From the IMG/VR virus record IMGVR_UViG_3300027804_000045, positions 86,744 through 150,743 of that record: a stretch of DNA of 64,000 bases; one strand, 5' to 3'. The notes under the pieces are model-generated. The model had not been told where the DNA came from and did no database searches. It saw only the letters and a program-made list of their open reading frames with translations. The position numbers were made by a program, and so were the translations under genes. Source of the DNA: a virus. Below are positions 659 to 31,552 of the stretch, in pieces (within the stretch, counting starts at the first letter, position 1; every line of letters starts with the position of its first letter).

Positions 659-2710
659 TCAAGCATAAGTTGCGCCAACTGTATACCATTGCGTAGTAGT
701 TGGGGCAACATACTGAATTGTAGAACCTGCTGGTTGTGTGAATCCAGCATTAGTAGACAGTGTATTAATTATACCACCACTAGCAGGATATACTAATAAA
801 CTATTAGCACTTGTATTCGTTATAGTAATTACCATACCTGCAACTGCTGTAGGTAGTACTACACCTTGACCAGTTGACACTGTTGAGACAACATCTATTT
901 CTTTTGTAAGTGCTGTGGCTGTACCCTGTGTTGATCCTGCGGCACTTATACCGGTAGCCACGCTGCGTATATGATAAGATGTTACAGTTACATTTGCTCC
1001 GCTTATATTACCTGATGTAGTGAGTGAAGTCAACGTACCTACCGAAGTGATGTTTGGTTGTGCCGCTGTTGTTACCGTACCTGCTGTAGTTGCGCTTCCT
1101 ACAGTGCCTGTCACATTCGCGCCCGCAATATTTGTAAGGCCTGCACCATTGCCATAATATGCGCCTGTATTGACAATTACGTTACCGGTAACAGTTACAT
1201 TGCTGTTTGTCTTATTAAACGTAAAGTTAGCATTACCGTTGCCAACACCATTGTCATTAAATTGAACTTCAGTATTTGCACCGCCTATTGCACCAGCTGG
1301 GCCAGTCGCTCCTGTAGGTCCCACGATACCAGTAGAGCCTTGTACACCTGTTGCACCTGTAGGTCCTAGATCTCCTGTAGCACCTTGAATACCTGTCGCT
1401 CCTGTCAGACCTGTAGCACCGACTGGACCTTGAATGTTTCCTACGTCACTCCATACTCCGCCGGCTTTCACCCACAAGTCTCCAGTATCTTCAGCAATGA
1501 CACCATTGCCATCAACTGCGCTAGGGAATGCCGCGTTTAGAGTTGCTTGAGGAGTACCACCTACTGTAGGAACGCTTCCTATGATTGTTACACTAGTACC
1601 TGCTGGGCCAGTAGCGCCTGTAGGGCCTGCGACACCAGTCGCACCTGTCGGGCCAGTCGCACCTACTCCAGTAGCACCAGTTGGACCCGTTAAACCTGTA
1701 CTACCTGTTGGGCCTGTTATGCCAGTAGCACCAGTAGAACCTTGCGGTCCTGTAGCACCAGTCGCACCTGTTGGGCCACCGCTTGGGCCAGTAGAACCAG
1801 TAAGTCCCGTCGCCCCAGTAGCACCAATACCGGTCGCCCCGGTTTGGCCACCTGCTGATATAGCGGCATAACCTGTCACTGAACTTGTGAATGTCAATGT
1901 AAGCGTATTAGCCGTATTGAATGTGATTGTAGGATAGTCATATCTACCTACAAAACTATTACCAGTGCTATCAACTGGTTCAACGTTCACATATAAACTG
2001 TTGAGATTGTGAGTTACGTTCCACGTTGTCGATGACGAACTTTGTGTGTGGATGTATGCGCCGCCAGCTGCACCTGTAGCGCCTTGTGGACCAGTAGCGC
2101 CGGTTGCACCAGTTAAACCAGTAGCACCCATTGGTGTAAATATATTGACTGTCCAAGGCGTATAAGGACCAGTACCACTACCCTGTCCACCTGTCACATT
2201 TACAACTAATGCACCTGTCGCTATATTATATGACTGAACTACACCAGTCATATATTTGTCTGTCTCACCGTCAGCAATGAAAATAATATTTTGAAAGGCA
2301 ACGTAGGGTAAACCGGTATCTACTGTGCAAGAAATAGTCGACGGAATCTCTAGATTGATTGATGCTGTTGTGCTTGTTTGATAATCAAGCATAGGTCCAG
2401 TAGCACCCATGCCACCATAACTTATCGCGGCATATCCTGTTTGCGGTGACGCAAAAGTAATAGTAAGTGTATTAGAATTTAAAAAGCTTATAGTAGGATA
2501 AGTAAGAGGGCTTACATTTTGATTTGCACTATCAATTACTTCAACGTTAAGATATCGCTCTCCCAAATTATGATTTACAGTCCAAACTGATGCTGCCACT
2601 AATTGTTCGTGGGTGTAGGTACCACCTGTTGGGCCAGTAGCGCCTTGAACACCGGCTATAGCCGGTAACCATGTTGATGTCAAACTATCGTAATATTTTA
2701 ATACACCCAT
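659..2710 (-). CDS. Collagen-like (G-X-T) tail/head fibre protein
   Basis: Long GAT/GPT triplet tracts, two W-x-V-x-HNL domains, and a C-terminal domain shared with the neighbouring gene. Confidence 0.8.
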
Positions 2711-2738: not shown

Positions 2739-5135
2739 TTATGCGTAACTTGCTCCGACTGTATACCACTGTGTCGCGCTTACAGCAAAGTACTGTAAAC
2801 TTGCACCGGCTACATGAGTATAAGCTGTGTTGGTCGACAACGTATTAATCGTTGCGCCTGTTGCTGGATATACGTTTAAACTTGTCGCGCTTGTATTATT
2901 AACTATGATTACCATACCTGCAATTGCTGTAGGTAATACAATACCTTGCCCTGCACTTACTGTGCTTACAATGTTTATATCTTTTGTTATTGCTGTCGCT
3001 GTGCCTTGTGTTGATCCGGCAGCACTAATACCAGTCGCTACACTTCTTAAGTAATTACCACTTAAAGATATATTTTCTGTCGTCAGAGTATTAGTATCTG
3101 TGCGATATGTTAGATCAACATCTCCACGCAAAATCTGATTAGTTGTTCTGTTCTCAACAAATGTAGGATAATATGTTGTTGTTAACCCATTTGTATTTGT
3201 TATATCGATAGTAGTAGCATTAGACAATGCAGGACCAGTAGCACCTGTTGCTCCTTGCGGACCTGTTGGGCCTCCTGCAGGACCAGCTGGGCCAGTCGCA
3301 CCTGTCGCACCTATACCCTCAATACCTGGCGTGCTAGTATCATACCATAATACAGTTGTATCTACGGGTTGAGTAGGTCCTTCAACTAAACCTGCTACAC
3401 CAGTAGCGCCAGTCGCTCCTGTGCTACCAGGTATACCTGCCGCTCCAGCTAGATTTACCTGCCAACTACTGTACACATTACCTAATGTGCCTACTACACT
3501 AGATACGCTAACTATCATCACTCCTGTTGCACTGTTATATGCGGCAACAGTAGCAAACATACGTTGCGCTAAACTATGCGCAATAGAAATTTCTTGACCG
3601 GTAGCGTATGCTAAACCTATACCTACTGTCAATGTTGCTGGTCCGGTAGCGATAGTAAGTGATGTATTACTTGTTGTGAAATATCTATCGCCAGTAGCAC
3701 CAGGAACACCTGTCGCTCCAGAAACACCAGTAGCACCAGTAGCACCGAGACCTGTAGCGCCTTGTGGACCAGTAGCGCCGGTAGCGCCTATACCTGTAGC
3801 GCCTTGTGGACCAGTAGCGCCGGTAGCGCCTATGCCACCTATACCCCAAGTTAGATTTCCGGTGCCGTCTGTGGTTAATACTTGTCCTGATGCGCCACCA
3901 AATATTTGAACTTTATTAGCATAACCTAAGTTTGCTATGCCACCAGTCACATGTAAATTAGGTGTTGTTAGTTCAACATTTAAATAAATTTCATCTATAT
4001 ATCCAACATGACCATTTGCGAGAATATCTGTATCAAACGTTGTTTGTAATTGTCCAAATTGTACTACATTTGGTTGTGCGTTTACTGAAATAGTAACGTT
4101 ACTATTGGGGTATACGCGAATATTTGATGAACCGTTTTCAATTTCGGTAATATTACCGATAGATAGATTTGATAATCCGCCACCGTCGCCAACAAAATAT
4201 GTTGCGTTAACATTACCGATCACATTTAAATTACTATTAGCAGCATTAAAAATTAAATTAGGACTTGCTGCAAAATTATTGCTACCATCATTATATTGAA
4301 TTTGACCTGCGCCGCCAGCTGGATATTGTAAATCCCAAGGTAGGCCATTTGCATATAATAAGTTATCAGTGCGTACATTGCCTGCGCTGACTGATGATGC
4401 ATTGACAAAATTTGCTTGAGCAAGATTGCCTAAATTTGCGTTACCGGATATTATGTTTCCTGCTGTTAATAATCCAGTGACATTTGCTGTAGCAATATTG
4501 GCTGTATTCGTAACAGTTAAATTTGAAGTGCTTACAACATTTGAAGCATTAATATTTGCCGCGTTAACAGTATTAGAAATATTAGCAATATTAGCTGTGA
4601 TAACATTACCCACAGCAAGATTAGCGTTGCTAGTTATGTTATTTGCTAATATGTTACCTGTAACGTTAAGAGTAGTTAGGTTTCCTACATTACCGAAAAA
4701 GTTTGTTGCTGTGATGTTGTTTGTCGCTACAACATTGCCGTTAGCGATTGTGACATTAGGATTGCCCGGACTTATATTGCCTATAATCAGTGATTCGTTG
4801 ATAACTGTATTGTCAAGCAAATCAATCCATAGATTTGACAACCCTGAATCGATAATGATTTGATCTAATTCAGATCCTGGAGTTAATCCTACGCCTAAAC
4901 TTTGTGTTTTTACTTTTAGTTGATAAAAGTCGTTACTGATGATAACATTACCAAAAGTGGGATTTACGGTTAAGCCCTTCTCTTTTTTGGCACGATTGAT
5001 GGATAAGACGCCGCTAGATGTCTGTAATTGATATAATTCATTAAAGTTTTCTTGTGCTTTTTGAAACCCAGTGCGTATCGCATCTGCATCTGGATCATCG
5101 GGAAAACTACCGAAATCTATATTCTGCTGTGCCAT
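2739..5135 (-). CDS. Collagen-like fibre protein with a baseplate-anchor-like N-terminus
   Basis: N-terminal QNIDFGSFPDDPDADAIRTGFQK resembles T4 gp9/gp10-like anchors; Asn-rich beta repeats; G-X-T tracts. Confidence 0.75.
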   Translation of the reverse strand: MAQQNIDFGSFPDDPDADAIRTGFQKAQENFNELYQLQTSSGVLSINRAKKEKGLTVNPTFGNVIISNDFYQLKVKTQSLGVGLTPGSELDQIIIDSGLSNLWIDLLDNTVINESLIIGNISPGNPNVTIANGNVVATNNITATNFFGNVGNLTTLNVTGNILANNITSNANLAVGNVITANIANISNTVNAANINASNVVSTSNLTVTNTANIATANVTGLLTAGNIISGNANLGNLAQANFVNASSVSAGNVRTDNLLYANGLPWDLQYPAGGAGQIQYNDGSNNFAASPNLIFNAANSNLNVIGNVNATYFVGDGGGLSNLSIGNITEIENGSSNIRVYPNSNVTISVNAQPNVVQFGQLQTTFDTDILANGHVGYIDEIYLNVELTTPNLHVTGGIANLGYANKVQIFGGASGQVLTTDGTGNLTWGIGGIGATGATGPQGATGIGATGATGPQGATGLGATGATGVSGATGVPGATGDRYFTTSNTSLTIATGPATLTVGIGLAYATGQEISIAHSLAQRMFATVAAYNSATGVMIVSVSSVVGTLGNVYSSWQVNLAGAAGIPGSTGATGATGVAGLVEGPTQPVDTTVLWYDTSTPGIEGIGATGATGPAGPAGGPTGPQGATGATGPALSNATTIDITNTNGLTTTYYPTFVENRTTNQILRGDVDLTYRTDTNTLTTENISLSGNYLRSVATGISAAGSTQGTATAITKDINIVSTVSAGQGIVLPTAIAGMVIIVNNTSATSLNVYPATGATINTLSTNTAYTHVAGASLQYFAVSATQWYTVGASYA
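3750..3833. repeat. Exact 42-bp tandem duplication inside the collagen tract
   Basis: ACCTGTAGCGCCTTGTGGACCAGTAGCGCCGGTAGCGCCTAT x2; 33 bp of it recurs at 2072-2104. Confidence 0.9.
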
Positions 5136-5240: not shown

Positions 5241-8200
5241 TTACTTTGCTAGACCTGCTAGTTTCTTCCAGGCTTTAACATCTTCGTCGCCTTCTCTTGC
5301 TTCTTGACCAGCAATAACAGGTATTGTAGTTTGACCTGTTGATTTAGGCTTGTTCAATCCACCGCTGATAGTCTGAGTCATAAAATCAGTATCGCGTGTG
5401 AATGCTGCATCTGTGCCTTTTTGACCTGCATCATTTGCCCATTCATCAAGTTTTGTCTGTTGCATGACACTCTTTAATAATTCATCACTATCGCCTTCCA
5501 TTCCAGGCATACCCTTTAACATTGCGTCAAGTTGTGCCTTTAAACTATCCATATCAGTAGTATTTAGGGCGTCCTTTTCACTTGGTTCACCAACTCTTTT
5601 TCCAGTAACTTTTACTGGTTGCAACATATCATCAGTTGGTGGAATAGTTCTTGTAGCATCTTTATCCCCTGTTGGGACTCTACGACCAGTGACCTTAACT
5701 GGTTGCAAATCATCAATGCTAGGTTTTTTTAATCCTCTACTCTTTAACCATGCTGCTAATTCATCATATGTATTTGCACCTGATAGATTTAACAAATCAC
5801 CTAGTTGTCTGTCTCCTGGCAATTCTTGATCTTTAGGTGTTGCTCTCTTTGATGTTACATCTACAGGAGGTAGAACATACTTATCAAAGTCTGCCATATT
5901 CACTTTTGATCCACCAGGAAGTGTGATGTATTTTTCATCTTCCTGGCCCATGTTACCTATTCCGTATCTTCGTAATGTTCCGCCTAGATTTTTTGAAATG
6001 GCTGCAAACTTGTCCTGCATATTTTTGAATATATCATCAAAATTTGTCTGCATATTTGACATAGCAGGAGTGTTGCCTGCCATGTTTGGCATTGATGGCA
6101 TTGTTGGCATCTTGAAATTCTTCATAGCATTATCATATTCTGCTTTTGAAGCTGGTTTGCCATCTACTTCATATGATGAAGTATTGCTTGATTGATTTTT
6201 TACATCAAATTCTGGCATGCCATCAGCACCTTTGCCTAGATTTTCTGCACCAGGTAATGAAACTACTTCGGCTTCAGGACTATCAGGCTTGTCAATGTTA
6301 TCTAATTTTGACATGATGTCTTTCATAGAACTATTGACATCACCCGCATCTTCATTAGTTGCACCACCTTTTGATGCACCACTCAATGCTAATGCGCTGT
6401 CAATCTTGCCTGCATCAGCTTGGCTTTGTTCGTAACCTTCACCATCATCTTCAGCGACCATGAATTCGCGCTGATCTAATGTTTCGGTTTCACCTACTTC
6501 TTCTTTGTCTTTTTTGAATGCGCTTGCTGCACGTTTTGCTAGCATAGCAGTTTTAACAGGATTTGCTAATGCAGCACGACCTGCAAGACCTGCTAATCTA
6601 CCTAATGCTGCTAATGCTGGTGCAGCTTCATCAAGTTGATCTGACTTTATTTGCGCTTCAATTGTAGTTTCTAAAACTTCTTCAGTTTTTTTTTCACAAC
6701 CGCATGAACTTTCCATCATACCGCATTCATTGCAAGTATGCTCTTCTTCATGTCCATGATCATGTCCGTGACCATGATCATCGTGCGATTCTAAACCAGT
6801 TAATTTTGATAATAAGTCATCCATGCTTGGCATGTCATGACCATTAAATTTAGGTGCGCCATAATCACTTGCTGTTGCAATAACTGTTGGTTCAGCAGGT
6901 GTCAATACTGATTCTTTATCACCGAAACCACCTAAACCTACTTGCTTGATAAATGCTAATAGTTTTTCACTATCGCCATCTGTAGCTGTAACGCTTACGC
7001 TGTTTGGGCTACCTTCTTGACCAGTTGACATTGATACTGAAAGACCTTCATTAACGACTTTGCTTTCTGTTAATAGTGCATTAAGTTGATTTTCTAAATC
7101 TTCAAATGCGTATGTTTCTGAAACATCTTTATCTTTGAATGTTTGACCAAATGCTTTAAATGTGTCACCTGGTGTAGTTTTTGCTTTGTGCTTCAACCAA
7201 TCACCTTTGTCCATTTCATCTAAATCATCTTCTTGCATTTGTTGTGCTGCTTGCTGACCGATATTGCTTAAGTTTGCACGGCTTTGCATTACAGCGCCCA
7301 TGTTTGATGAGCCATCTTGTTTAGTTGCAGCAACGCCACCTACATTCATTTGTGGTTGTTGCGGCATAGCAGTAGCAACTGGCTTCACAGGTACATTTGC
7401 TTGCGGAGCAGGATTAGTTGCTGAAGTATTTACCTGTTGTGCTTGTGGCTTTTGAACTGGTACTGCTGCCATTTGATTTGTATTTTCATCGACAGCGCCA
7501 AAACTTGCCATGTCGTCTACGACATCTTGTGATGTTTCTTCATCAACATAACCACGACCTGGAACAAGTCCATAGCATTCTTCTAGGCCACACTTGTAAC
7601 CTTCAAAGTAATGCTTTGCTTCTTCCATATCTTCGTAGTGTTTTACGCGGCATGGTTGCTCACGTAGACCGTGTACATAGCCTTCGCTATATGCTGCTTT
7701 TAATAGATTGCTCATAGATTCATTTACCTTCTTTTTCTTTTTGTCAGCTGCTGCCTTCTTCATTGATTCTTTTTTATTACCGTCATTGTCAAGATCAATG
7801 AAATCTGGCTTTGCCTCCAATACGTTATCGCTGCGACCAGCGCCTAGTCCTGCACCATAATCTGGGCCTGACTTTGGAATTTCTGCTTCTTTTACTTTCT
7901 TGGGCAGTTTACTTACTTTCTGACCATGACTCTTTTTAATAAATTCTTTTGCTACATCTTGACTTACGCCTGTTTTCTTGGCAACACTCTTGTCACCTGC
8001 TACGGCGTGCATCAATTTTGCTTGTTGTTGACTTGCGAATTTCTCGTCAACCTTTTCTTCTTTCATTGCTGCACCTTCACCTTTCTTCCAGCCACCTTTC
8101 GCTCTTAAAGCAAAATTGATTTGACGCATTTTCTTTGCTTGTGGACTATTTTCATCGTGCGGTCCAGACTTCTTTAGTTTAGCAAGCATGGATTTCAATT

Positions 8201-10271
8201 CTTCAACAGACTTGTCTTTGTACTCGCCTGTCGGTTTTACAACATCAGCAGGTTTATCTTTTTTGAAAGCATTATATATGACTCCGCCTCCTCGCTTGTC
8301 CATTTGAACCTTTAGTTTTTCAGCTTCATCTAGCATTTCTTCTGCAGGTTCTTTTTCTGGAGCATTGTCTTTACCGCGTTTTTTACCCATATAGTATCCC
8401 TGATCGTCTTTTCCGATGTTGAAAAGTTTTCTAAATAAACTCTTTCCATCACCCTTAACGTCAGGTTCTTTTTCTTTTGGTCCTAATTGTGCTCCTAATC
8501 TTGTATTAAGATCACCTACTGCGCCTGCATTTTGACTTGCTATTTGTGACCATCTTTCTGGGTTATCTTTATAAGTTACTGTTTCAATTTCCCCACTAGG
8601 ATTTCTTACCTTGAATGCATAATCAAGAGGCACATTAGCATCTATTTGATTTCTTCCAACCATGCTGTCATATTTTTCTTTTGATACAGGTCTAGTTCTA
8701 CCAGTATTTGGATCTCTGATTTGATAACTTGTTTTTACATCTGCCTTTGCAGGTTCTTCTGCTGGCTCTGATGGTTGTTCAACATCACCTGCTGCGTCTA
8801 CTGGCTCTTGATTTACAGTATCAACATCTTTTTGTAATTGATCTAATGTATCGTCTTTAGGTGCTGCTGGTTGAGCAGGAGCCTGTGTGCTACCGGTTTT
8901 TAAATAATTGTTTAATTCATCATATGTATTAGCACCGGCAAGATTTAATAGGCGGCCTAATTCTGCATCGCCTGGTTTATCTTGATCTTTAGGTTGTGTT
9001 CTCTTGCCTGTTACTGTTACTGGTTCTAATTCGTCTGCTGCATCTGATGGTTGTTCTGGTTTCTCATCAGCTTTAGCATCTGCCGGCTTCTCATCAGCTT
9101 TAGCATCTGCTGGCTTCTCATCGGCTTTAGCATCTGCTGGCTTTTGATCATCTGCAGGTGCGGTGCTATCTCCTGCTTTTTGCGCTCTTAACTTGTTTAA
9201 TAAATCTATATTACCTTGATAATCTCTTGGTCTATTTTTATAGGCTTCAGGATCTAATCTACGAATCTCTGCTCCTACTTTACCATAGCGTTCTTCATCA
9301 CTCATTCCTGCCAATTGTTGAATTCTATCAATTTCATCAGGTTTTTCGGCTGATGGGGGAGGAGTTGCGCTAACATCCGCTACAGATGAGATAGTAAGAT
9401 AGTTTGGTGCTTTTGGTGCATCTGGTGCTACAGGAGCGACTGGCTGTGCAGATGCCGCAGGAGCCACTGGCTGTGCTGGAGCAGCAGGAGCTACCGCTGC
9501 TGGTTTATTGTCTGCTGCGGTTGCTGGTTTATTATCTGCAGCAGGTTTATCGTCACCCGCTAATGCAGCCATGCCTGCTGCGCCGGCGCCTGCTCCTATT
9601 GCAGGACCGCCTCTTGATGTTGCTGCACCTGCTTTTGATGCTAATGATTGATTTGGTAAATTAATTGCACTTTGAGGATTTTTAAATCCGCTAGCAAAAT
9701 TCTTAAACGGTTTACTGAAATCGTCGCCGTATTTTGCACCTAATTTTAATATATCGTCGATGCCTTCTTCTATGCTATCTTCAGCAACTTGCTTGCCTGA
9801 TGTTTGCACTGATGCTCTTTTAGCAGCAGCTAGTGCTGCTTGTTGTTGCTGTTGTTGAATTCTATTTGGTGGAAGTATGATGCTCAAACCTCTTGCACCT
9901 AATCTACGTAGCATATCATTGACAGCTACCCCTGCTTGTCCAGGAACATTCACGTTTAAAAATCCTGCTTGTCCTGGTACTGGTTTATTATCTGGACCAA
10001 CTACAGGAATAGGAAACTGACCTTCGTTTAATATTTCTTGTTCAGTTTCTTCAAAATATTCTTTTAATGATTTCTTTTTCTTATCATCATATCTGATATC
10101 AGCAGCAACTTTCTTGCCTGCTTTTTCGGCGCGTTCATCGTCACTACCCTTATGATCTTCATCATATTCAATATCCTTAGTGACTTCTTCGCCTGCCTTT
10201 TTGGCCTTGTCATCTTTTTCGGCTGTTGATTCAGCCTCATTTACTATTTGTAGAAATTTCTTAAATTCCAT
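5241..10271 (-). CDS. Large low-complexity protein, probable internal head protein processed by the prohead protease; contains TonB-box-like motifs
   Basis: 1676 aa; more than 20 [ILVM]-x-E motifs; DxDxDG motif; His/Cys-rich tract; internal repeats; lies in a late operon. Confidence 0.6.
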   Translation of the reverse strand: MEFKKFLQIVNEAESTAEKDDKAKKAGEEVTKDIEYDEDHKGSDDERAEKAGKKVAADIRYDDKKKKSLKEYFEETEQEILNEGQFPIPVVGPDNKPVPGQAGFLNVNVPGQAGVAVNDMLRRLGARGLSIILPPNRIQQQQQQAALAAAKRASVQTSGKQVAEDSIEEGIDDILKLGAKYGDDFSKPFKNFASGFKNPQSAINLPNQSLASKAGAATSRGGPAIGAGAGAAGMAALAGDDKPAADNKPATAADNKPAAVAPAAPAQPVAPAASAQPVAPVAPDAPKAPNYLTISSVADVSATPPPSAEKPDEIDRIQQLAGMSDEERYGKVGAEIRRLDPEAYKNRPRDYQGNIDLLNKLRAQKAGDSTAPADDQKPADAKADEKPADAKADEKPADAKADEKPEQPSDAADELEPVTVTGKRTQPKDQDKPGDAELGRLLNLAGANTYDELNNYLKTGSTQAPAQPAAPKDDTLDQLQKDVDTVNQEPVDAAGDVEQPSEPAEEPAKADVKTSYQIRDPNTGRTRPVSKEKYDSMVGRNQIDANVPLDYAFKVRNPSGEIETVTYKDNPERWSQIASQNAGAVGDLNTRLGAQLGPKEKEPDVKGDGKSLFRKLFNIGKDDQGYYMGKKRGKDNAPEKEPAEEMLDEAEKLKVQMDKRGGGVIYNAFKKDKPADVVKPTGEYKDKSVEELKSMLAKLKKSGPHDENSPQAKKMRQINFALRAKGGWKKGEGAAMKEEKVDEKFASQQQAKLMHAVAGDKSVAKKTGVSQDVAKEFIKKSHGQKVSKLPKKVKEAEIPKSGPDYGAGLGAGRSDNVLEAKPDFIDLDNDGNKKESMKKAAADKKKKKVNESMSNLLKAAYSEGYVHGLREQPCRVKHYEDMEEAKHYFEGYKCGLEECYGLVPGRGYVDEETSQDVVDDMASFGAVDENTNQMAAVPVQKPQAQQVNTSATNPAPQANVPVKPVATAMPQQPQMNVGGVAATKQDGSSNMGAVMQSRANLSNIGQQAAQQMQEDDLDEMDKGDWLKHKAKTTPGDTFKAFGQTFKDKDVSETYAFEDLENQLNALLTESKVVNEGLSVSMSTGQEGSPNSVSVTATDGDSEKLLAFIKQVGLGGFGDKESVLTPAEPTVIATASDYGAPKFNGHDMPSMDDLLSKLTGLESHDDHGHGHDHGHEEEHTCNECGMMESSCGCEKKTEEVLETTIEAQIKSDQLDEAAPALAALGRLAGLAGRAALANPVKTAMLAKRAASAFKKDKEEVGETETLDQREFMVAEDDGEGYEQSQADAGKIDSALALSGASKGGATNEDAGDVNSSMKDIMSKLDNIDKPDSPEAEVVSLPGAENLGKGADGMPEFDVKNQSSNTSSYEVDGKPASKAEYDNAMKNFKMPTMPSMPNMAGNTPAMSNMQTNFDDIFKNMQDKFAAISKNLGGTLRRYGIGNMGQEDEKYITLPGGSKVNMADFDKYVLPPVDVTSKRATPKDQELPGDRQLGDLLNLSGANTYDELAAWLKSRGLKKPSIDDLQPVKVTGRRVPTGDKDATRTIPPTDDMLQPVKVTGKRVGEPSEKDALNTTDMDSLKAQLDAMLKGMPGMEGDSDELLKSVMQQTKLDEWANDAGQKGTDAAFTRDTDFMTQTISGGLNKPKSTGQTTIPVIAGQEAREGDEDVKAWKKLAGLAK
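9061..9145. repeat. 27-bp tandem repeat (KPADAKADE x3)
   Basis: Three near-identical ttctcatcRgctttagcatctgcYggc units. Confidence 0.85.
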
Positions 10272-10282
10272 GATAAAACCTC

Positions 10283-10915
10283 TTACGCCATCGCGCCTGT
10301 TTTTGGTTTAGCAGGGCGTGTGATGTTTGTCATTGGGCTCTTGTTGCCCTTTGATTTATCATCTAGGTATGGCTTGAATGGATCGAAACTGTCTGGAGTG
10401 CGCTTTGCATCATAAGGAATATCTTTGCCTTGGAAACCATCCTTGCTTTGTGCTTTGATGCTATCTAGATATGAATTACCATAATCTTTATTTGCTTTTT
10501 TAGCTGCATCGCCCGCATCTTCCATCTCTTCATGTGTCAATACAGGACTATGTTCCATCTGATTAGCATACTGTTCGCTTTCACTATTGATGCTGTCGTC
10601 ATATTTGCTATCAACTAAACGTACATAATTTACATTATAACCTAATAGTTGTGCCAACTGTTGCACCATTGGTTCTGTAGCAGGATAACGGAACTTGCAA
10701 CGTAGTAGTGTTACTGGTTCGTTGCTTAAGCCTGGAAAACCATAAGCATCTTTAGCGATAGGAAGTGTCTTAGGTGTGATTGGAGTTGCTGGATCAAACT
10801 TCTTTAGATTGTGAATGAACAAATCTATGAAATTTTTATCAATTTCTCCAGCAATTTTAATTGTTACATCATATAAATGTACACTTTCAGCAATGTATTG
10901 TTTTAGGCTTTTCAT
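10283..10915 (-). CDS. Hypothetical virion/head protein
   Basis: N-terminal MKSLKQYIAE propeptide-like motif; TAAATA at 10935-10940. Confidence 0.6.
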   Translation of the reverse strand: MKSLKQYIAESVHLYDVTIKIAGEIDKNFIDLFIHNLKKFDPATPITPKTLPIAKDAYGFPGLSNEPVTLLRCKFRYPATEPMVQQLAQLLGYNVNYVRLVDSKYDDSINSESEQYANQMEHSPVLTHEEMEDAGDAAKKANKDYGNSYLDSIKAQSKDGFQGKDIPYDAKRTPDSFDPFKPYLDDKSKGNKSPMTNITRPAKPKTGAMA

Positions 10916-11435: not shown

Positions 11436-11873
11436 TTAACTTTTGCCCTTCTTATAGAAAAGATCGTCCTCTGTAATGACTCTGAATGTCAATCCTGCCT
11501 TCTTACAATAGGCAGTTGCTGCTGCCCATTTTGCATGGTTTACTGCTACAGCTGCTCTATCTCTAGCACTTGCTGTTCTACTTTCTATAAGGCTTTGCTT
11601 TTTGGGCTTTATTTCAACAAGTTCAGCCCTCTGTCTTCCATGCTTATCTTGATATTGCACAAAAAAATCCGGCACATAAATCGTGGATTTGCCGGTCAGT
11701 GGATTTCTATAGGGTATCTGTATAGATTCGCTGGCCCAAGATATCACGCTATCATGATTGTCACAAAACATCATAAATGTTAATTCCCAACCACTGCGAT
11801 ATCTAGGTACATGAGTGCCTATATACTTACCTTTGTTTTTGCACTGATATTTGCCTTGAGCAAAATTTGCCAT
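11436..11873 (-). CDS. Head completion protein (T4 gp4-like, TnsA-type nuclease fold)
   Basis: KYIG..YRSGWE..FM.FCD, WASE..IPY, YVPDFF and EIKP motifs; start taken at ATG 11871-11873. Confidence 0.85.
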   Translation of the reverse strand: MANFAQGKYQCKNKGKYIGTHVPRYRSGWELTFMMFCDNHDSVISWASESIQIPYRNPLTGKSTIYVPDFFVQYQDKHGRQRAELVEIKPKKQSLIESRTASARDRAAVAVNHAKWAAATAYCKKAGLTFRVITEDDLFYKKGKS

Positions 11874-11874
11874 A

Positions 11875-12237
11875 TTATAATACAACGTTTCTTGCTACTG
11901 CCTGATTAGGAGTAGGAACTACTGCTAATCCATATAAGCTAGTCTTTGATTTGAAACTGTTAAAGTAATAAGCCATTATTTGACTTAAATCAACTTTTGT
12001 TTTTGCTCTACCTTGTAATTCTTCAAGCAAAACCATAGCATCTATACCGTTCGCTTCTGCCATTCTAAAAAATACAGCAGTAAAATTTGCTGCTATTTGT
12101 TTTGTGTCACATACGCTATCAAAATAACTTTTAACGTAGTCATATTGATTTGTGGGAATAACTGTATTTTGTTTGTAAAAGGCATCAAAAATTTTTACTG
12201 TTTGTTCTTGTGTTTGTCTTTGTATATCGTACAACAT
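11875..12237 (-). CDS. Hypothetical protein
   Basis: 120-aa ORF coupled within the tail operon. Confidence 0.65.
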   Translation of the reverse strand: MLYDIQRQTQEQTVKIFDAFYKQNTVIPTNQYDYVKSYFDSVCDTKQIAANFTAVFFRMAEANGIDAMVLLEELQGRAKTKVDLSQIMAYYFNSFKSKTSLYGLAVVPTPNQAVARNVVL

Positions 12238-13475
12238 TAGATTGGTCCTCTTACTCTAGGTTGGCGCGGTGAAGTGGTAGAAGGTACTTGAGAACCTGCT
12301 GTTGGATCTCCTCCTACTACGCCCGGTTGTGAACCATTAGATATTGTAGGTGAACCTGCACCATTGTTTGTAGGTGTCTCTTGTTTTACAGGAGTTTGTG
12401 TTTGTTGATTACGTATTGTAGGTCCTACTTTTAACTGACCTAAGGCGCCTAATAGTAAATTTTCAGCTTCTTGTTTAAGCGCGGTTTTTGCATTATATGA
12501 TTTATAATTGTTATAAGTGGCACCTGCTATCTTTATGGCACCTAAAATATTTTTATCGCCTAATGCATTTACAAATCCACCTATACCGTCTACGAACCCA
12601 CCCTGACCTAATATCTTGCCATTAGCTCCGGGAACAGTGATAGGACTTAATTCTCTATCATAATTTGCTGCATCAGCAAAGTTACCTGTCTCGATATTAG
12701 GTAATGTTTCACCATTGAATGCACCTTCGTAATATTGCACTGTTTCGTATTCGATAGTCATACGATTTTGCATCACTCCGTTACCTTGATCGTAATCATA
12801 AGAATCGTGAGCAAAATTTGCAATCATTGGATTTATTAATTGATAAGCAATATATTGGTGTTGATTAAATCCATACACAGTTATATTATTAAAAAAAGGT
12901 TTTTTAGTATTTGCGCCGGATGCATTTGTGCTTATCTCGCCTACATATCCCCAGTCAAAACTACCTTGCGCATCATCACTATAAGTATTTCTTGTATTAA
13001 AATCTGCTTGTGTGCTTTGAGTTGTGTTACTACCTGGATTTTTTGATAGTTTAGCAGCATCTTTATAATAATATGTATAATATGCATACCACAACTTGTT
13101 TATAACGTTACTATTATCATCATGAAAAGTAATTTCTACTGGATCGTAATTGATCTTAGTCTGAACAATTCTTTTGCGATTATATTGATTTAGTGTATGT
13201 GTCGCAAAACGATAGCTAGGTAATCTTATATCTTTGACTAATAATCCATAATTACTAAAATTTGCTGTCATCGTTGAATCAAGAGCAGCTGGATTAATAT
13301 TAAAATATGTGTGAAAAAGAAACTTGAATTTAGGAGCAAGAGCATAACTGTCGCTTACGAAAGTTTTGCTAGCGTGAGTGAAGTCTCTTAAGTAGGCCCC
13401 GCTAGGAGCCCCCGGTGTTCCTAAGAAAGCACCGAGGGCATTTTGTAATTGCTCACCCCAATAACCTTTAGCCAT
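12237..13475 (-). CDS. Tail-tube-fold baseplate protein (gp19/gp48/gp54-like)
   Basis: LVKDIRLPSY...YNRK......YDPVEITFHDD tube-like motif; follows the tube gene. Confidence 0.65.
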   Translation of the reverse strand: MAKGYWGEQLQNALGAFLGTPGAPSGAYLRDFTHASKTFVSDSYALAPKFKFLFHTYFNINPAALDSTMTANFSNYGLLVKDIRLPSYRFATHTLNQYNRKRIVQTKINYDPVEITFHDDNSNVINKLWYAYYTYYYKDAAKLSKNPGSNTTQSTQADFNTRNTYSDDAQGSFDWGYVGEISTNASGANTKKPFFNNITVYGFNQHQYIAYQLINPMIANFAHDSYDYDQGNGVMQNRMTIEYETVQYYEGAFNGETLPNIETGNFADAANYDRELSPITVPGANGKILGQGGFVDGIGGFVNALGDKNILGAIKIAGATYNNYKSYNAKTALKQEAENLLLGALGQLKVGPTIRNQQTQTPVKQETPTNNGAGSPTISNGSQPGVVGGDPTAGSQVPSTTSPRQPRVRGPI

Positions 13476-29470: not shown

Positions 29471-30160
29471 TTACAGGAATTGAGTGTAATATTCTTCTAT
29501 TCTGTGAAACCATTTGTCTGTGTATGTGTCGAATTCCTTACCTTCAACTATAAATTCCTGATATTTATTATCAGCACTACACATAAAGACTACACCCTTA
29601 CGTATGTTAGTTCCATACACTTCATTATGTGCTGTAGCATAAGCGGATAATTGAAGAAAATAGTCATCGATCCATTCGCGCTTTTTAGGCTTGTTAGTTT
29701 GCTTATGGTCCATGATGGCCTCTGAACCCTCATGTATCCCAACAAGGTCTGTAGTTCCCGCATATACTTCAGGGAAGTAAAGACTGACTTCTGTTCCCCA
29801 AAATTCCTGACACTTACTTAACCCTTTGTCAATGATAGTCTGAGCCATCAGATGACTTTGTATACTGTAAGGATTGGTACCGGGCTTTCCTGTATCTCCG
29901 GTTTTCACATGATTTTCTAAAAACTTGTGCATACGAGTCCCACGACCCGCTGCCTCTGTAGTTATTTCTTTTGCCTTCTGCTCGCCTACCCGCTTACGCC
30001 ATTCACGTAGTGCTTGCTTTGCTTCTTCGGGTTTAGTTGCATCCAGTATCGTGGTGACACTGGGAACAGCATATCCATCTGGGGTCATATATTTCCTTGA
30101 CCCATTAATGGTTTCGCGCTTCAGTTCTTTGTAGGGAAATTTATTAGGTAAGTATATCAA
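29471..30160 (-). CDS. PD-(D/E)XK exonuclease
   Basis: PSVTTIL, RGTRMH, YAGTTDLVG, MDHKQ and QLSAYA motifs; start placed at the TTG overlapping the iscA stop. Confidence 0.8.
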   Translation of the reverse strand: MIYLPNKFPYKELKRETINGSRKYMTPDGYAVPSVTTILDATKPEEAKQALREWRKRVGEQKAKEITTEAAGRGTRMHKFLENHVKTGDTGKPGTNPYSIQSHLMAQTIIDKGLSKCQEFWGTEVSLYFPEVYAGTTDLVGIHEGSEAIMDHKQTNKPKKREWIDDYFLQLSAYATAHNEVYGTNIRKGVVFMCSADNKYQEFIVEGKEFDTYTDKWFHRIEEYYTQFL

Positions 30161-30477
30161 ACAGTAAAACTCTCGCCGCAACCGCAGCGTCCTGCTTCGT
30201 TAGGATTTAGAAATTCAAATCTTTCATTCAATCCTTGCTTGATATAATCAATCGTGATGCCATCCAATAACCTTTCAGCTAATGGATCTACGAACAAAGT
30301 AAAATTATCGTAATGTTGATGGAATCCTGTTACAGGAGTATCGGCAAACTCAAGGGTGTATGCGTAACCAGAACAGCCTGTTTTCTTCACGCCTACAAGT
30401 ATCCCTATACCTTTGCCGCGCTGTTCTAGTTGTTCTATAAATCTTTGTTCAGCTTTATCTGTTATTGTTATAAGCAT
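30157..30477 (-). CDS. iscA: A-type Fe-S cluster carrier (IscA/HesB)
   Basis: GCSGYAY and CGCGESF motifs. Confidence 0.92.
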   Translation of the reverse strand: MLITITDKAEQRFIEQLEQRGKGIGILVGVKKTGCSGYAYTLEFADTPVTGFHQHYDNFTLFVDPLAERLLDGITIDYIKQGLNERFEFLNPNEAGRCGCGESFTV

Positions 30478-30485
30478 TTCAATAC

Positions 30486-30514
30486 ATTATAGTGCAATTG
30501 TTGTATAAAAACAA
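30486..30514 (-). promoter_or_regulatory. Sigma70-like promoter, near-leaderless start
   Basis: TTGTTT-17-TATAAT-8 nt-ATG. Confidence 0.6.
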
Positions 30515-30517
30515 CTT

Positions 30518-30853
30518 TTATTTGCCCAATGCTTTTTTAGCCATCTTTGCTACTACTTCTTTGCTTTGTTCTGGAGATGGCATTTCTGGTGTTTTAGGTT
30601 GCTGTGGTAGACCTTTGAAAACAACTTCTTGACCCTTTACGTCAGATATTACTGACTTAAGTGGATCGACTTTTATCATGTTGTAAATGTCTTTGTTAGA
30701 CAATACAACATCAAAACTGTCAAAATATTCAAGCAACTGATCTAACGTCCAGTTACTGGTAATCTCGCCCTTTTTGATAGCCTGCTTTAATTGGTCACTT
30801 GCTGATATGATATTTACCAGCAACTCCTGATCTGAAAATTCAAAGAGGTACAT
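30518..30853 (-). CDS. Hypothetical (probable head) protein
   Basis: N-terminal MYLFE motif; late operon. Confidence 0.6.
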   Translation of the reverse strand: MYLFEFSDQELLVNIISASDQLKQAIKKGEITSNWTLDQLLEYFDSFDVVLSNKDIYNMIKVDPLKSVISDVKGQEVVFKGLPQQPKTPEMPSPEQSKEVVAKMAKKALGK

Positions 30854-30856
30854 TAC

Positions 30857-31552
30857 TTACCTCTTTTCGCGACCAACTCCACCTACTGGTGCTGCTTCTG
30901 GCTCTTCGGCTGGAACTTCGGCAGCTACTTCAGCTCCGATCAATTCACCGTCTGGTTCTTGTTTTGCTGCGATATCTGTCACAGCAACTTCTTCACCGCC
31001 GCTTGGTGCACCTAATGCTGACATGTCGCCTTGACCTGTCATAGCATTCATAGCACCTTGTAGCATTTGCTTGCTTTGGCTTAAGCACTGGTTTAAAGCG
31101 GTTAGTGCTTCGCTGGCAGCCTGGTTGAATGTTTGTGATTCATTAGCACCAATCTCGCTTTGTATGCTATCAGTCAATGCAGGTAATTCTTTAACTAACA
31201 TATTGTTAGTTTCTTCAAGCATTTTCTGAAGTTGATCTACCATATCTTGGGCTGCTAGAATAACTTGTGATTTTTCTACTTCCGCATTTTCTACAAGAAT
31301 TCTTGATGGTTTCAATGTCTTAAAATGTTCTAATAATGCTTGGCTCATGAATACTAATTTCATGTAACTAGGATCATTTTGTGCTGCATAATAATTAGGC
31401 ATCATACGTGCTTCTTTGATAAGACCATTAATTCTAGTCATCATGGATAATGTCTGGCCATATGACAAATTTGAAGGGTCAAAGTTGTAATCAAAATTAG
31501 CTCTTAATGCTTTGACAGCGACATTTTTAGATGTTAAATCATTCATTTTCAT
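30857..31552 (-). CDS. Hypothetical (probable head/scaffold-associated) protein
   Basis: Helical and acidic with IKE/LVE motifs; TAAATA at 31579-31584. Confidence 0.6.
   Translation of the reverse strand: MKMNDLTSKNVAVKALRANFDYNFDPSNLSYGQTLSMMTRINGLIKEARMMPNYYAAQNDPSYMKLVFMSQALLEHFKTLKPSRILVENAEVEKSQVILAAQDMVDQLQKMLEETNNMLVKELPALTDSIQSEIGANESQTFNQAASEALTALNQCLSQSKQMLQGAMNAMTGQGDMSALGAPSGGEEVAVTDIAAKQEPDGELIGAEVAAEVPAEEPEAAPVGGVGREKR

Follow-up and report, generated by a model that had tools for sequence, protein, structure and literature searches.

The window analysed here, a stretch of 64,000 nucleotides of viral DNA (positions 86,744 to 150,743 of the IMG/VR virus record IMGVR_UViG_3300027804_000045), encodes on its minus strand an acidic protein of 1676 amino acids (aa), P0001, in which four copies of a ten-residue motif resemble the TonB boxes of proteobacterial outer-membrane transporters. 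This likeness is quantitative and objective, as scored against boxes of genuine transporters. Comparison of metagenomic relatives marks the motif out as a selected short linear motif in a disorder-like region, gained in one lineage; among the proteins compared it is confined to one small clade and is not a general property of the family to which P0001 belongs. An original prediction made on this DNA had interpreted the motifs as a TonB-harnessing entry system, and this interpretation is partly supported overall. Engagement of host TonB by the phage boxes is put forward tentatively: it stands as the likeliest single mechanism, since the sequence matches nothing else that is known, and docking to a phage partner, a cytoplasmic target or absence of any function are together at least as likely. 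The open reading frame (ORF), its boxes and the module that follows two of them are located as follows.

5241..10271, minus strand: ORF P0001, 1676 aa, 5031 bases; acidic (net charge -56), mostly disorder-like, a string of small modules; member of a large unnamed jumbo-phage family.
9000..9029 (9000-9032 with the preceding Glu), minus strand: box 1, LEPVTVTGKR, aa 415-424; 18.4 bits on the transporter-derived matrix, 77th percentile of real boxes.
5844..5873, minus strand: box 2, LPPVDVTSKR, aa 1467-1476; 13.8 bits, 54th percentile.
5679..5708, minus strand: box 3, LQPVKVTGRR, aa 1522-1531; 11.4 bits, 36th percentile.
5595..5624, minus strand: box 4, LQPVKVTGKR, aa 1550-1559; 11.3 bits, 36th percentile.
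8889..8999, minus strand: module copy 1, directly after box 1, aa 425-461 (PKDQ..PGD..LG.LLNL.GANTYDEL); putative two-helix, HeH-like unit.
5733..5843, minus strand: module copy 2, directly after box 2, aa 1477-1513; two short helices predicted.

Translation confirmed the four motifs that had been claimed at these positions of the protein, and a six-frame scan of the whole record (150,743 bases, about 43% complete) located V-x-V-[TS]-[GAS]-x-R in open frames at the four box sites only. The strict box pattern occurred in none of 20,000 shuffles of the protein. For scoring, a TonB-box matrix of ten columns was built without any phage sequence, from the residues upstream of 94 transporter plugs and by iteration from seven E. 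coli boxes; the plugs were located through plug-domain matches in E. coli K-12 and in a sample of 41 genomes from across the phylum of that species (proteobacteria). The consensus of this matrix is LETIVVTATR, and real boxes, each scored with its own sequence left out, reached 12.6 bits at the median (interquartile range 9.7-18.1). The phage boxes, falling between the 36th and the 77th percentile of genuine boxes, bear out the claimed TonB-box form. They are the top four windows of P0001, the next best window reaching 7.5 bits, and windows scoring like them are expected by chance at 0.05 per shuffled protein. Real boxes in the sample include LDPVSVTATR, MAPVVVTAQR and LERVEVTGSR. The boxes would fail the narrow enterobacterial pattern, with D/E-T at positions 2-3. 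NCBIfam and Pfam scans of three 66-aa box segments (E up to 10) gave no transporter family, and PDB sequence searches with two box segments gave chance matches only. The TonB_C profile was not found in the record; by this search, no TonB-like domain is encoded in the phage fragment itself. A co-fold of E. coli TonB 150-239 with aa 1510-1575 scored 0.00; it was run without controls and counts neither way.

The acidic, disorder-like context described for the boxes was also recovered. Disorder-promoting residues make up 72-90% of the 60-residue flanks, which are mostly net acidic (acidic/basic counts of 17/8, 11/5, 9/9 and 12/8 for boxes 1-4). In an AlphaFold2 model of aa 1385-1600, with a predicted local distance difference test (pLDDT) value of 49 and an alignment of only 9 sequences, boxes 2-4 were mostly coil at pLDDT below 50, box 4 only partly so, and module copy 2 formed two short helices at low confidence. 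The same module copy matched the Ish1 profile with E 0.14 and 13 bits, below the cut-off of 26.6 bits. The duplication of the module after two boxes could be verified at both levels, the 47-residue units that boxes 1 and 2 form with their 37-residue modules being identical at 30 of 47 residues and 92 of 141 bases. Boxes 3 and 4 are equal in peptide save one Arg/Lys change and share only 30 of 48 bases, with four synonymous third-position changes within ten codons; it is therefore the peptide, not the DNA, that was conserved. Other readings of the box were considered and rejected, i.e. a sortase LPXTG signal (wrong spacing and no membrane anchor), a gp21 cleavage site inside the box (no Glu at P1) and a TolA/TolB box (the TonB box is the closer resemblance). 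A protease site at the dibasic end was likewise considered and set aside.

A generalised form of the motif, L-x-[PG]-V-x-[VIL]-x-[GS]-[KR]-[KR], usually preceded by two acidic residues, was found in 26 copies in nine close metagenomic proteins (P0001-P0006, P0198, P0256 and P0257) and in none of 249 other proteins checked. A query running from box 2 to box 4, searched against longer proteins, found nothing outside this nine-protein clade. In a 216-residue alignment of the nine relatives, 9 of the 15 invariant columns fall in boxes 3 and 4, within a linker that differs in length and sequence from one relative to the next, and every clade member retains at least one copy scoring at least 11.3 bits. 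These observations bear on the explanation that the repeats are a functionless by-product of neutral duplication in a fast-evolving, low-complexity linker, with a chance likeness to TonB boxes. Such an origin would suit a protein rich in other short repeats (KADEKPADA and ADNKPA, each present twice), as well as the frequency of single look-alike windows: the remaining 44,868 residues of the record contain three windows of at least 11.3 bits, about one per 15,000 residues. It is nevertheless highly unlikely, given that the peptide was kept while its DNA diverged to 62-65% identity, that the invariant columns cluster in the boxes across relatives with differing flanks, and that a high-scoring copy persists in each member of the clade.

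Several points weigh against TonB as the partner of the motif. Single TonB-like 10-mers are common at the frequency just given, so that look-alikes are bound to turn up when very many windows are scanned. Such a string also stands in a folded strand of the conserved island 3 described below, where the core strand SPDSVSVTAT reads EDTVSVTATG in some family members (P0132, P0134 and P0127) and scores 17.7 bits. Lys at position 9 of the boxes is atypical of real boxes. Eight of the 26 copies (e.g. LQPVTIQSKK and LQPVTLQSKK) score at most 7.1 bits and have lost the V-T-G core, so that D-D-L-Q-P-V and the dibasic end are held more tightly than the V-T-[AG] core. Absence of the motif from most of the family means that it is not essential to the family's basic role. 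A search of 185,579 species genomes for relatives of the family found none and hence gave no host clue. T4 internal proteins are thought to reach the cytoplasm and not to remain in the periplasm. Finally, the lack of a gp21-like protease is counted here: searches of the 43%-complete record with the Peptidase_S77 and Gp23 profiles came back empty, and their controls were silent too.

Part of this evidence favours an explanation in which the motif docks as a strand onto a phage partner in the particle or its assembly, such as the scaffold core, the inner wall of the capsid, the portal, or DNA bound via the dibasic end and the two-helix module. The positions conserved are those outside V-T-G, eight copies have no TonB-like core, two boxes adjoin the putative HeH-like helix pair with its weak Ish1 match, TonB-like strings recur in a structured strand of the family core, and the protein looks like head cargo. 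The TonB likeness would then be convergent, short amphipathic strands with a basic end all looking alike. This explanation is nonetheless rated as somewhat unlikely: a motif restricted to one clade implies a partner restricted to that clade, and 18 copies score like genuine boxes at six of the seven most informative positions, which convergence would not require.

The best reading of P0001 itself is a head-packaged precursor, cut by a prohead protease into small modules, as judged from the sequence grammar of its family. The elements on which this reading draws, and the further conserved parts of the protein, are the following.

10233..10271, minus strand: N-terminal leader MEFKKFLQIVNEA, aa 1-13, ending V-N-E; resembles the T4 capsid-targeting sequence with its hydrophobic-x-Glu site.
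9555..9602, minus strand: Gly/Ala-rich segment AIGAGAGAAGMAALAG, aa 224-239; weakly hydrophobic.
7494..8051, minus strand: island 2, conserved, aa 741-926; holds a DUF3008-like peptide at aa 747-797 plus an EGY..GL.ECYG unit with Cys and His.
6627..7208, minus strand: island 3, conserved, aa 1022-1215; entry after L-D-E-M-D, exit after L-D-E; holds a His-rich CxxC..CxC cluster.
5244..5462, minus strand: C-terminal module, conserved, aa 1604-1676; entry after K-L-D-E, last residues ..W-K-K-L-A-G-L-A-K.

Internal proteins of T4 enter the prohead by means of a capsid-targeting sequence ten residues long, which gp21 then takes off with a cut after Glu; phages related to T4 put such leaders on varied cargo (PMC9026906). 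Read against this biology, the leader, the hydrophobic-x-Glu sites at the module borders and the occurrence of the leader on an unrelated ORF point to a head-packaged precursor. P0001 starts with MEFKKFLQIVNE followed by Ala, its leader ending at a hydrophobic-x-Glu site. Leaders of the family are of the kind MDFKxLLSQLDQLNEA or MKDIMQKLAELEA, and [LIVMF]xE is present within 24 residues in 191 of 252 members. A leader of the same type, MDIRKILDIVTEAE, starts a 601-aa ORF of the same record that lies outside the window (G000 29657-31462, plus strand) and is otherwise dissimilar to P0001. This ORF, whose body is globular-looking, unrelated to the family and marked by a Cys-rich CPGAGACKLVCYA stretch, is likely a second leader-targeted cargo. 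[LIVMF]-x-E-[MV]-[DSNG] precedes each of the 85 recognisable starts of island 3, [LIVMF]-x-E precedes each of the 116 that could be recognised for the C-terminal module, and a V-A-E-type end of island 3 was seen in 204 proteins. The overall [LI]xE count of P0001 is not enriched (10 observed against 11.2 expected). The original prediction of a packaged head protein is thus in keeping with the leader, the border sites and the leader on unrelated ORFs; the profile searches named above, with their silent controls, returned neither the protease nor the capsid protein from the incomplete record.

The Gly/Ala hydrophobic segment that had been noted upstream of box 1 does exist, at aa 224-239, and its hydrophobicity proved weak: no 19-residue window reaches a Kyte-Doolittle value of 1.2, and the segment thus does not qualify as a classical transmembrane helix. 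A second amphipathic stretch, rich in Ala, Gly and Leu (AAPALAALGRLAGLAGRAALA..; aa 1216-1255, 6507-6626, minus strand) lies directly after the L-D-E that ends island 3, and stretches like it were seen in P0003, P0040 and P0154. Such stretches may be membrane-active peptides freed by cleavage.

Metagenomic relatives of P0001 are numerous (at least 218 in 90% clusters; 670 representatives at 50% identity) and range from about 300 to 1700 residues. Similarity among them is limited to islands at approximately aa 30-70, 678-723, 741-926, 1022-1215 and 1604-1676, with variable acidic linkers between, and the chain terminus W-x-K-L-A-G-[ILV] is found in 210 of 257 family proteins. The first of these islands is a module that other family members place elsewhere: KAGKKV.KDIEYD(E/D).HKG.DD (10074-10196, minus strand, aa 26-66) occurs twice near the N-terminus in P0001 and near the C-terminus in P0003-P0006, so that modules move within the family. 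In island 3, a His-rich run is followed by C-N-E-C-G..C-G-C (aa 1160-1200; 6672-6794, minus strand), of which the first two Cys are near-invariant in 43 aligned family members; this Cys/His cluster is a probable metal site. The AlphaFold2 model of island 3 had a pLDDT of 59 and a predicted template modelling score (pTM) of 0.25. A Pfam scan of the whole 1676-aa protein found no family, and a PHROG scan gave weak matches limited to aa 747-849. Neither megablast nor tblastn of the whole gene matched any of 50,697 phage records. When a 476-aa query (aa 741-1216, covering islands 2 and 3) was searched against the same records, weak matches appeared, all to the DUF3008-like peptide (aa 747-801) and in RaK2/121Q-type phages. 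The ESM Atlas search gave no usable match.

The genes around P0001 allow another explanation, namely that the product is a tail-internal, tape-measure-like or tube-lumen protein that is expelled first into the periplasm, where the boxes would act. The minus-strand gene order is sheath, tube, tube paralogue, four small ORFs, the 1676-aa gene and two tail-fibre-like genes. Distant relatives on contigs of 337 and 348 kb keep the order from the sheath to the P0001-type gene, with three or four small ORFs before the large gene, and a position after sheath and tube is the usual place of the tape measure in contractile-tail modules. Such a role is judged unlikely, since lengths vary 2.5-fold (about 650 to 1700 aa) among phages with sheaths of similar size (1191-1284 aa), the difference lying in low-complexity linkers and not in a helical rod, and the models are of low confidence and contain no long helix. 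The leader and the hydrophobic-x-Glu borders also point away from it, towards the prohead protease, which works inside heads (PMC9026906).

The 1191-aa sheath is 44-45% identical to the sheaths of Pseudomonas phage PA5oct, Agrobacterium phage Atu_ph07 and Sinorhizobium phage Phosso. From this identity, the source phage is a jumbo myovirus of the T4 supergroup. Proteobacteria are the hosts of all cultured phages with the nearest sheaths, which counts for TonB as the target. The same DNA is present in freshwater and lake metagenomes from ten studies, and P0001 is also encoded on a contig of 204 kb.

For the interaction with TonB, the following course of events is proposed. The leader would carry the 1676-aa precursor into the prohead of a freshwater T4-supergroup jumbo myovirus, where a gp21-type protease, acting at hydrophobic-x-Glu sites, would break it up into small modules and disordered, acidic fragments. 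Boxes 2-4 would come to lie together on one fragment of some 395 residues (aa 1216-1610), and box 1 on another along with the Gly/Ala segment. The linkers of one small clade would have acquired the motif [DE][DE]-L-x-P-V-x-V-T-G-K-R in two to four copies, two of which, in P0001, came to be followed by the two-helix module. The fragments would pass down the tail and leave its tip into the Gram-negative periplasm, ahead of or together with the DNA, and the boxes would there add a beta-strand to the C-terminal domain of host TonB, as the boxes of transporters and colicins do. Either the leading end would then be tied to the TonB-ExbBD motor, which is driven by the proton-motive force, or TonB would be occupied and TonB-dependent uptake would stop. 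Packaging and cleavage are suggested by the family grammar, and arrival of the fragments in a Gram-negative periplasm by general phage biology. The complete scheme, in which a head-packed disordered protein with functional TonB boxes grips TonB, the TonB-ExbBD motor pulls or anchors the leading end of protein and DNA, and the two-helix module holds the DNA, must be regarded as quite improbable.

The fragments could also be injected into the cytoplasm in the manner of T4 internal proteins, and the motif could bind a host protein there, e.g. by strand addition to a defence or replication factor, as an early effector made in advance. Leader-bearing internal proteins of the T4 type are delivered with the DNA and vary between related phages in step with host defences (PMC9026906). 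Limitation of the motif to one clade would likewise be expected of an arms-race element. No known cytoplasmic motif matches the boxes, and sequence gives nothing beyond the analogy; a cytoplasmic effector is accordingly considered improbable.

To our knowledge, TonB boxes occur in outer-membrane transporters and in the bacteriocins that parasitise them, and not in phage particles; a literature search for a phage virion protein with a TonB box found none. Foreign proteins imported with a box of their own are represented by group B colicins and pyocins, and colicin B has reportedly dragged DNA through FepA. Like the boxes of transporters, colicins and pyocins, which lie in unstructured and often acidic segments, the phage motif is a strand motif of ten residues, set in flanks that are disorder-like; it matches L1, V4, V6, T7, G8 and R10 of the 94-transporter matrix. 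Unlike the proteins that carry those boxes, the phage protein has no plug, barrel, receptor-binding or killing domain. It holds two to four copies per chain instead of one, and they lie far from the N-terminus of the chain unless cleavage exposes them. Positions 9-10 are always dibasic in the phage and position 3 is Pro or Gly, and some copies are degenerate, without the V-T-G core.

With the internal and prohead core proteins of T4 (IPI-III, Alt, gp22, gp67 and gp68), P0001 has in common a short leader that ends in hydrophobic-x-Glu and is carried by unrelated proteins of the same genome, modules bounded by conserved hydrophobic-x-Glu sites, and acidic linkers. It differs from them in being five to ten times longer, in having no sequence similarity to any T4 protein, and in the place of its gene, which follows sheath and tube genes and is not beside capsid genes; its cleavage, moreover, is predicted from sequence. 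The virion structural proteins of RaK2/121Q-type phages (RaK2 ORF156, phrog_25121) share with P0001 the DUF3008-like peptide of about 50 residues (aa 747-797 of P0001), which forms the N-terminus of ORF156. This is one small module (E 2e-6 to the PHROG, 44-48% identity over about 55 residues), and the rest is unrelated. A conceptual parallel is offered by g3p of filamentous phages, which binds TolA and so parasitises an envelope system linked to the proton-motive force: in both cases a virion protein would engage the periplasmic domain of an energy-transducing inner-membrane protein during entry. The g3p case concerns Tol and not Ton, binding there is by a folded domain and not by a linear motif, and the phage is of another type.

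If the boxes do bind TonB, no virion protein of a phage would have been known to carry such a box before, and they would provide a concrete mechanism for energy-dependent entry of the genome. The dependence of some tailed phages on membrane energy for bringing in their genome is a long-standing puzzle, to which a pre-packed TonB ligand would offer a testable answer; alternatively, such a ligand would be a new kind of immediate superinfection and colicin exclusion. Apart from TonB, the analysis defines, with more than 670 cluster representatives, a family of modular jumbo-phage proteins that is very large and has no name, and the leader together with the hydrophobic-x-Glu grammar would make this family a natural carrier for clade-specific effector peptides.

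Among the neighbouring genes, the ORF directly upstream of P0001 is kept beside the family gene in distant relatives.

10283..10915, minus strand: upstream neighbour ORF, 210 aa, starting MKSLKQYIAES; 11 bases upstream of P0001.

Its leader closely resembles the targeting leader of T4 internal proteins, which reads MKTYQEFIAE. The homologues in the distant relatives are 208-210 aa long, and the ORF had no PHROG match. Further upstream, an ORF at 11436-11885 (minus strand), whose listed start codon TTG is open to doubt, has a match to phrog_218 ('head closure'), and the versions in relatives match Pfam Tn7_TnsA-like_N. On the basis of these matches, the ORF would encode an endonuclease-fold protein conserved within the tail gene block. 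The tube gene is followed by a gene for a longer second tube-like protein of 412 aa (12237-13475, minus strand). Its equivalent in one relative (L007 6342-8042) has 566 aa and a LysM match, i.e. a peptidoglycan-binding insert. Downstream of P0001, the two tail-fibre-like genes (2739-5135 and 659-2710, minus strand) are adjacent, have collagen-like PHROG matches and encode a near-identical C-terminal peptide (..TQWYTVGA[ST]YA). This shared end suggests exchangeable fibre tips.

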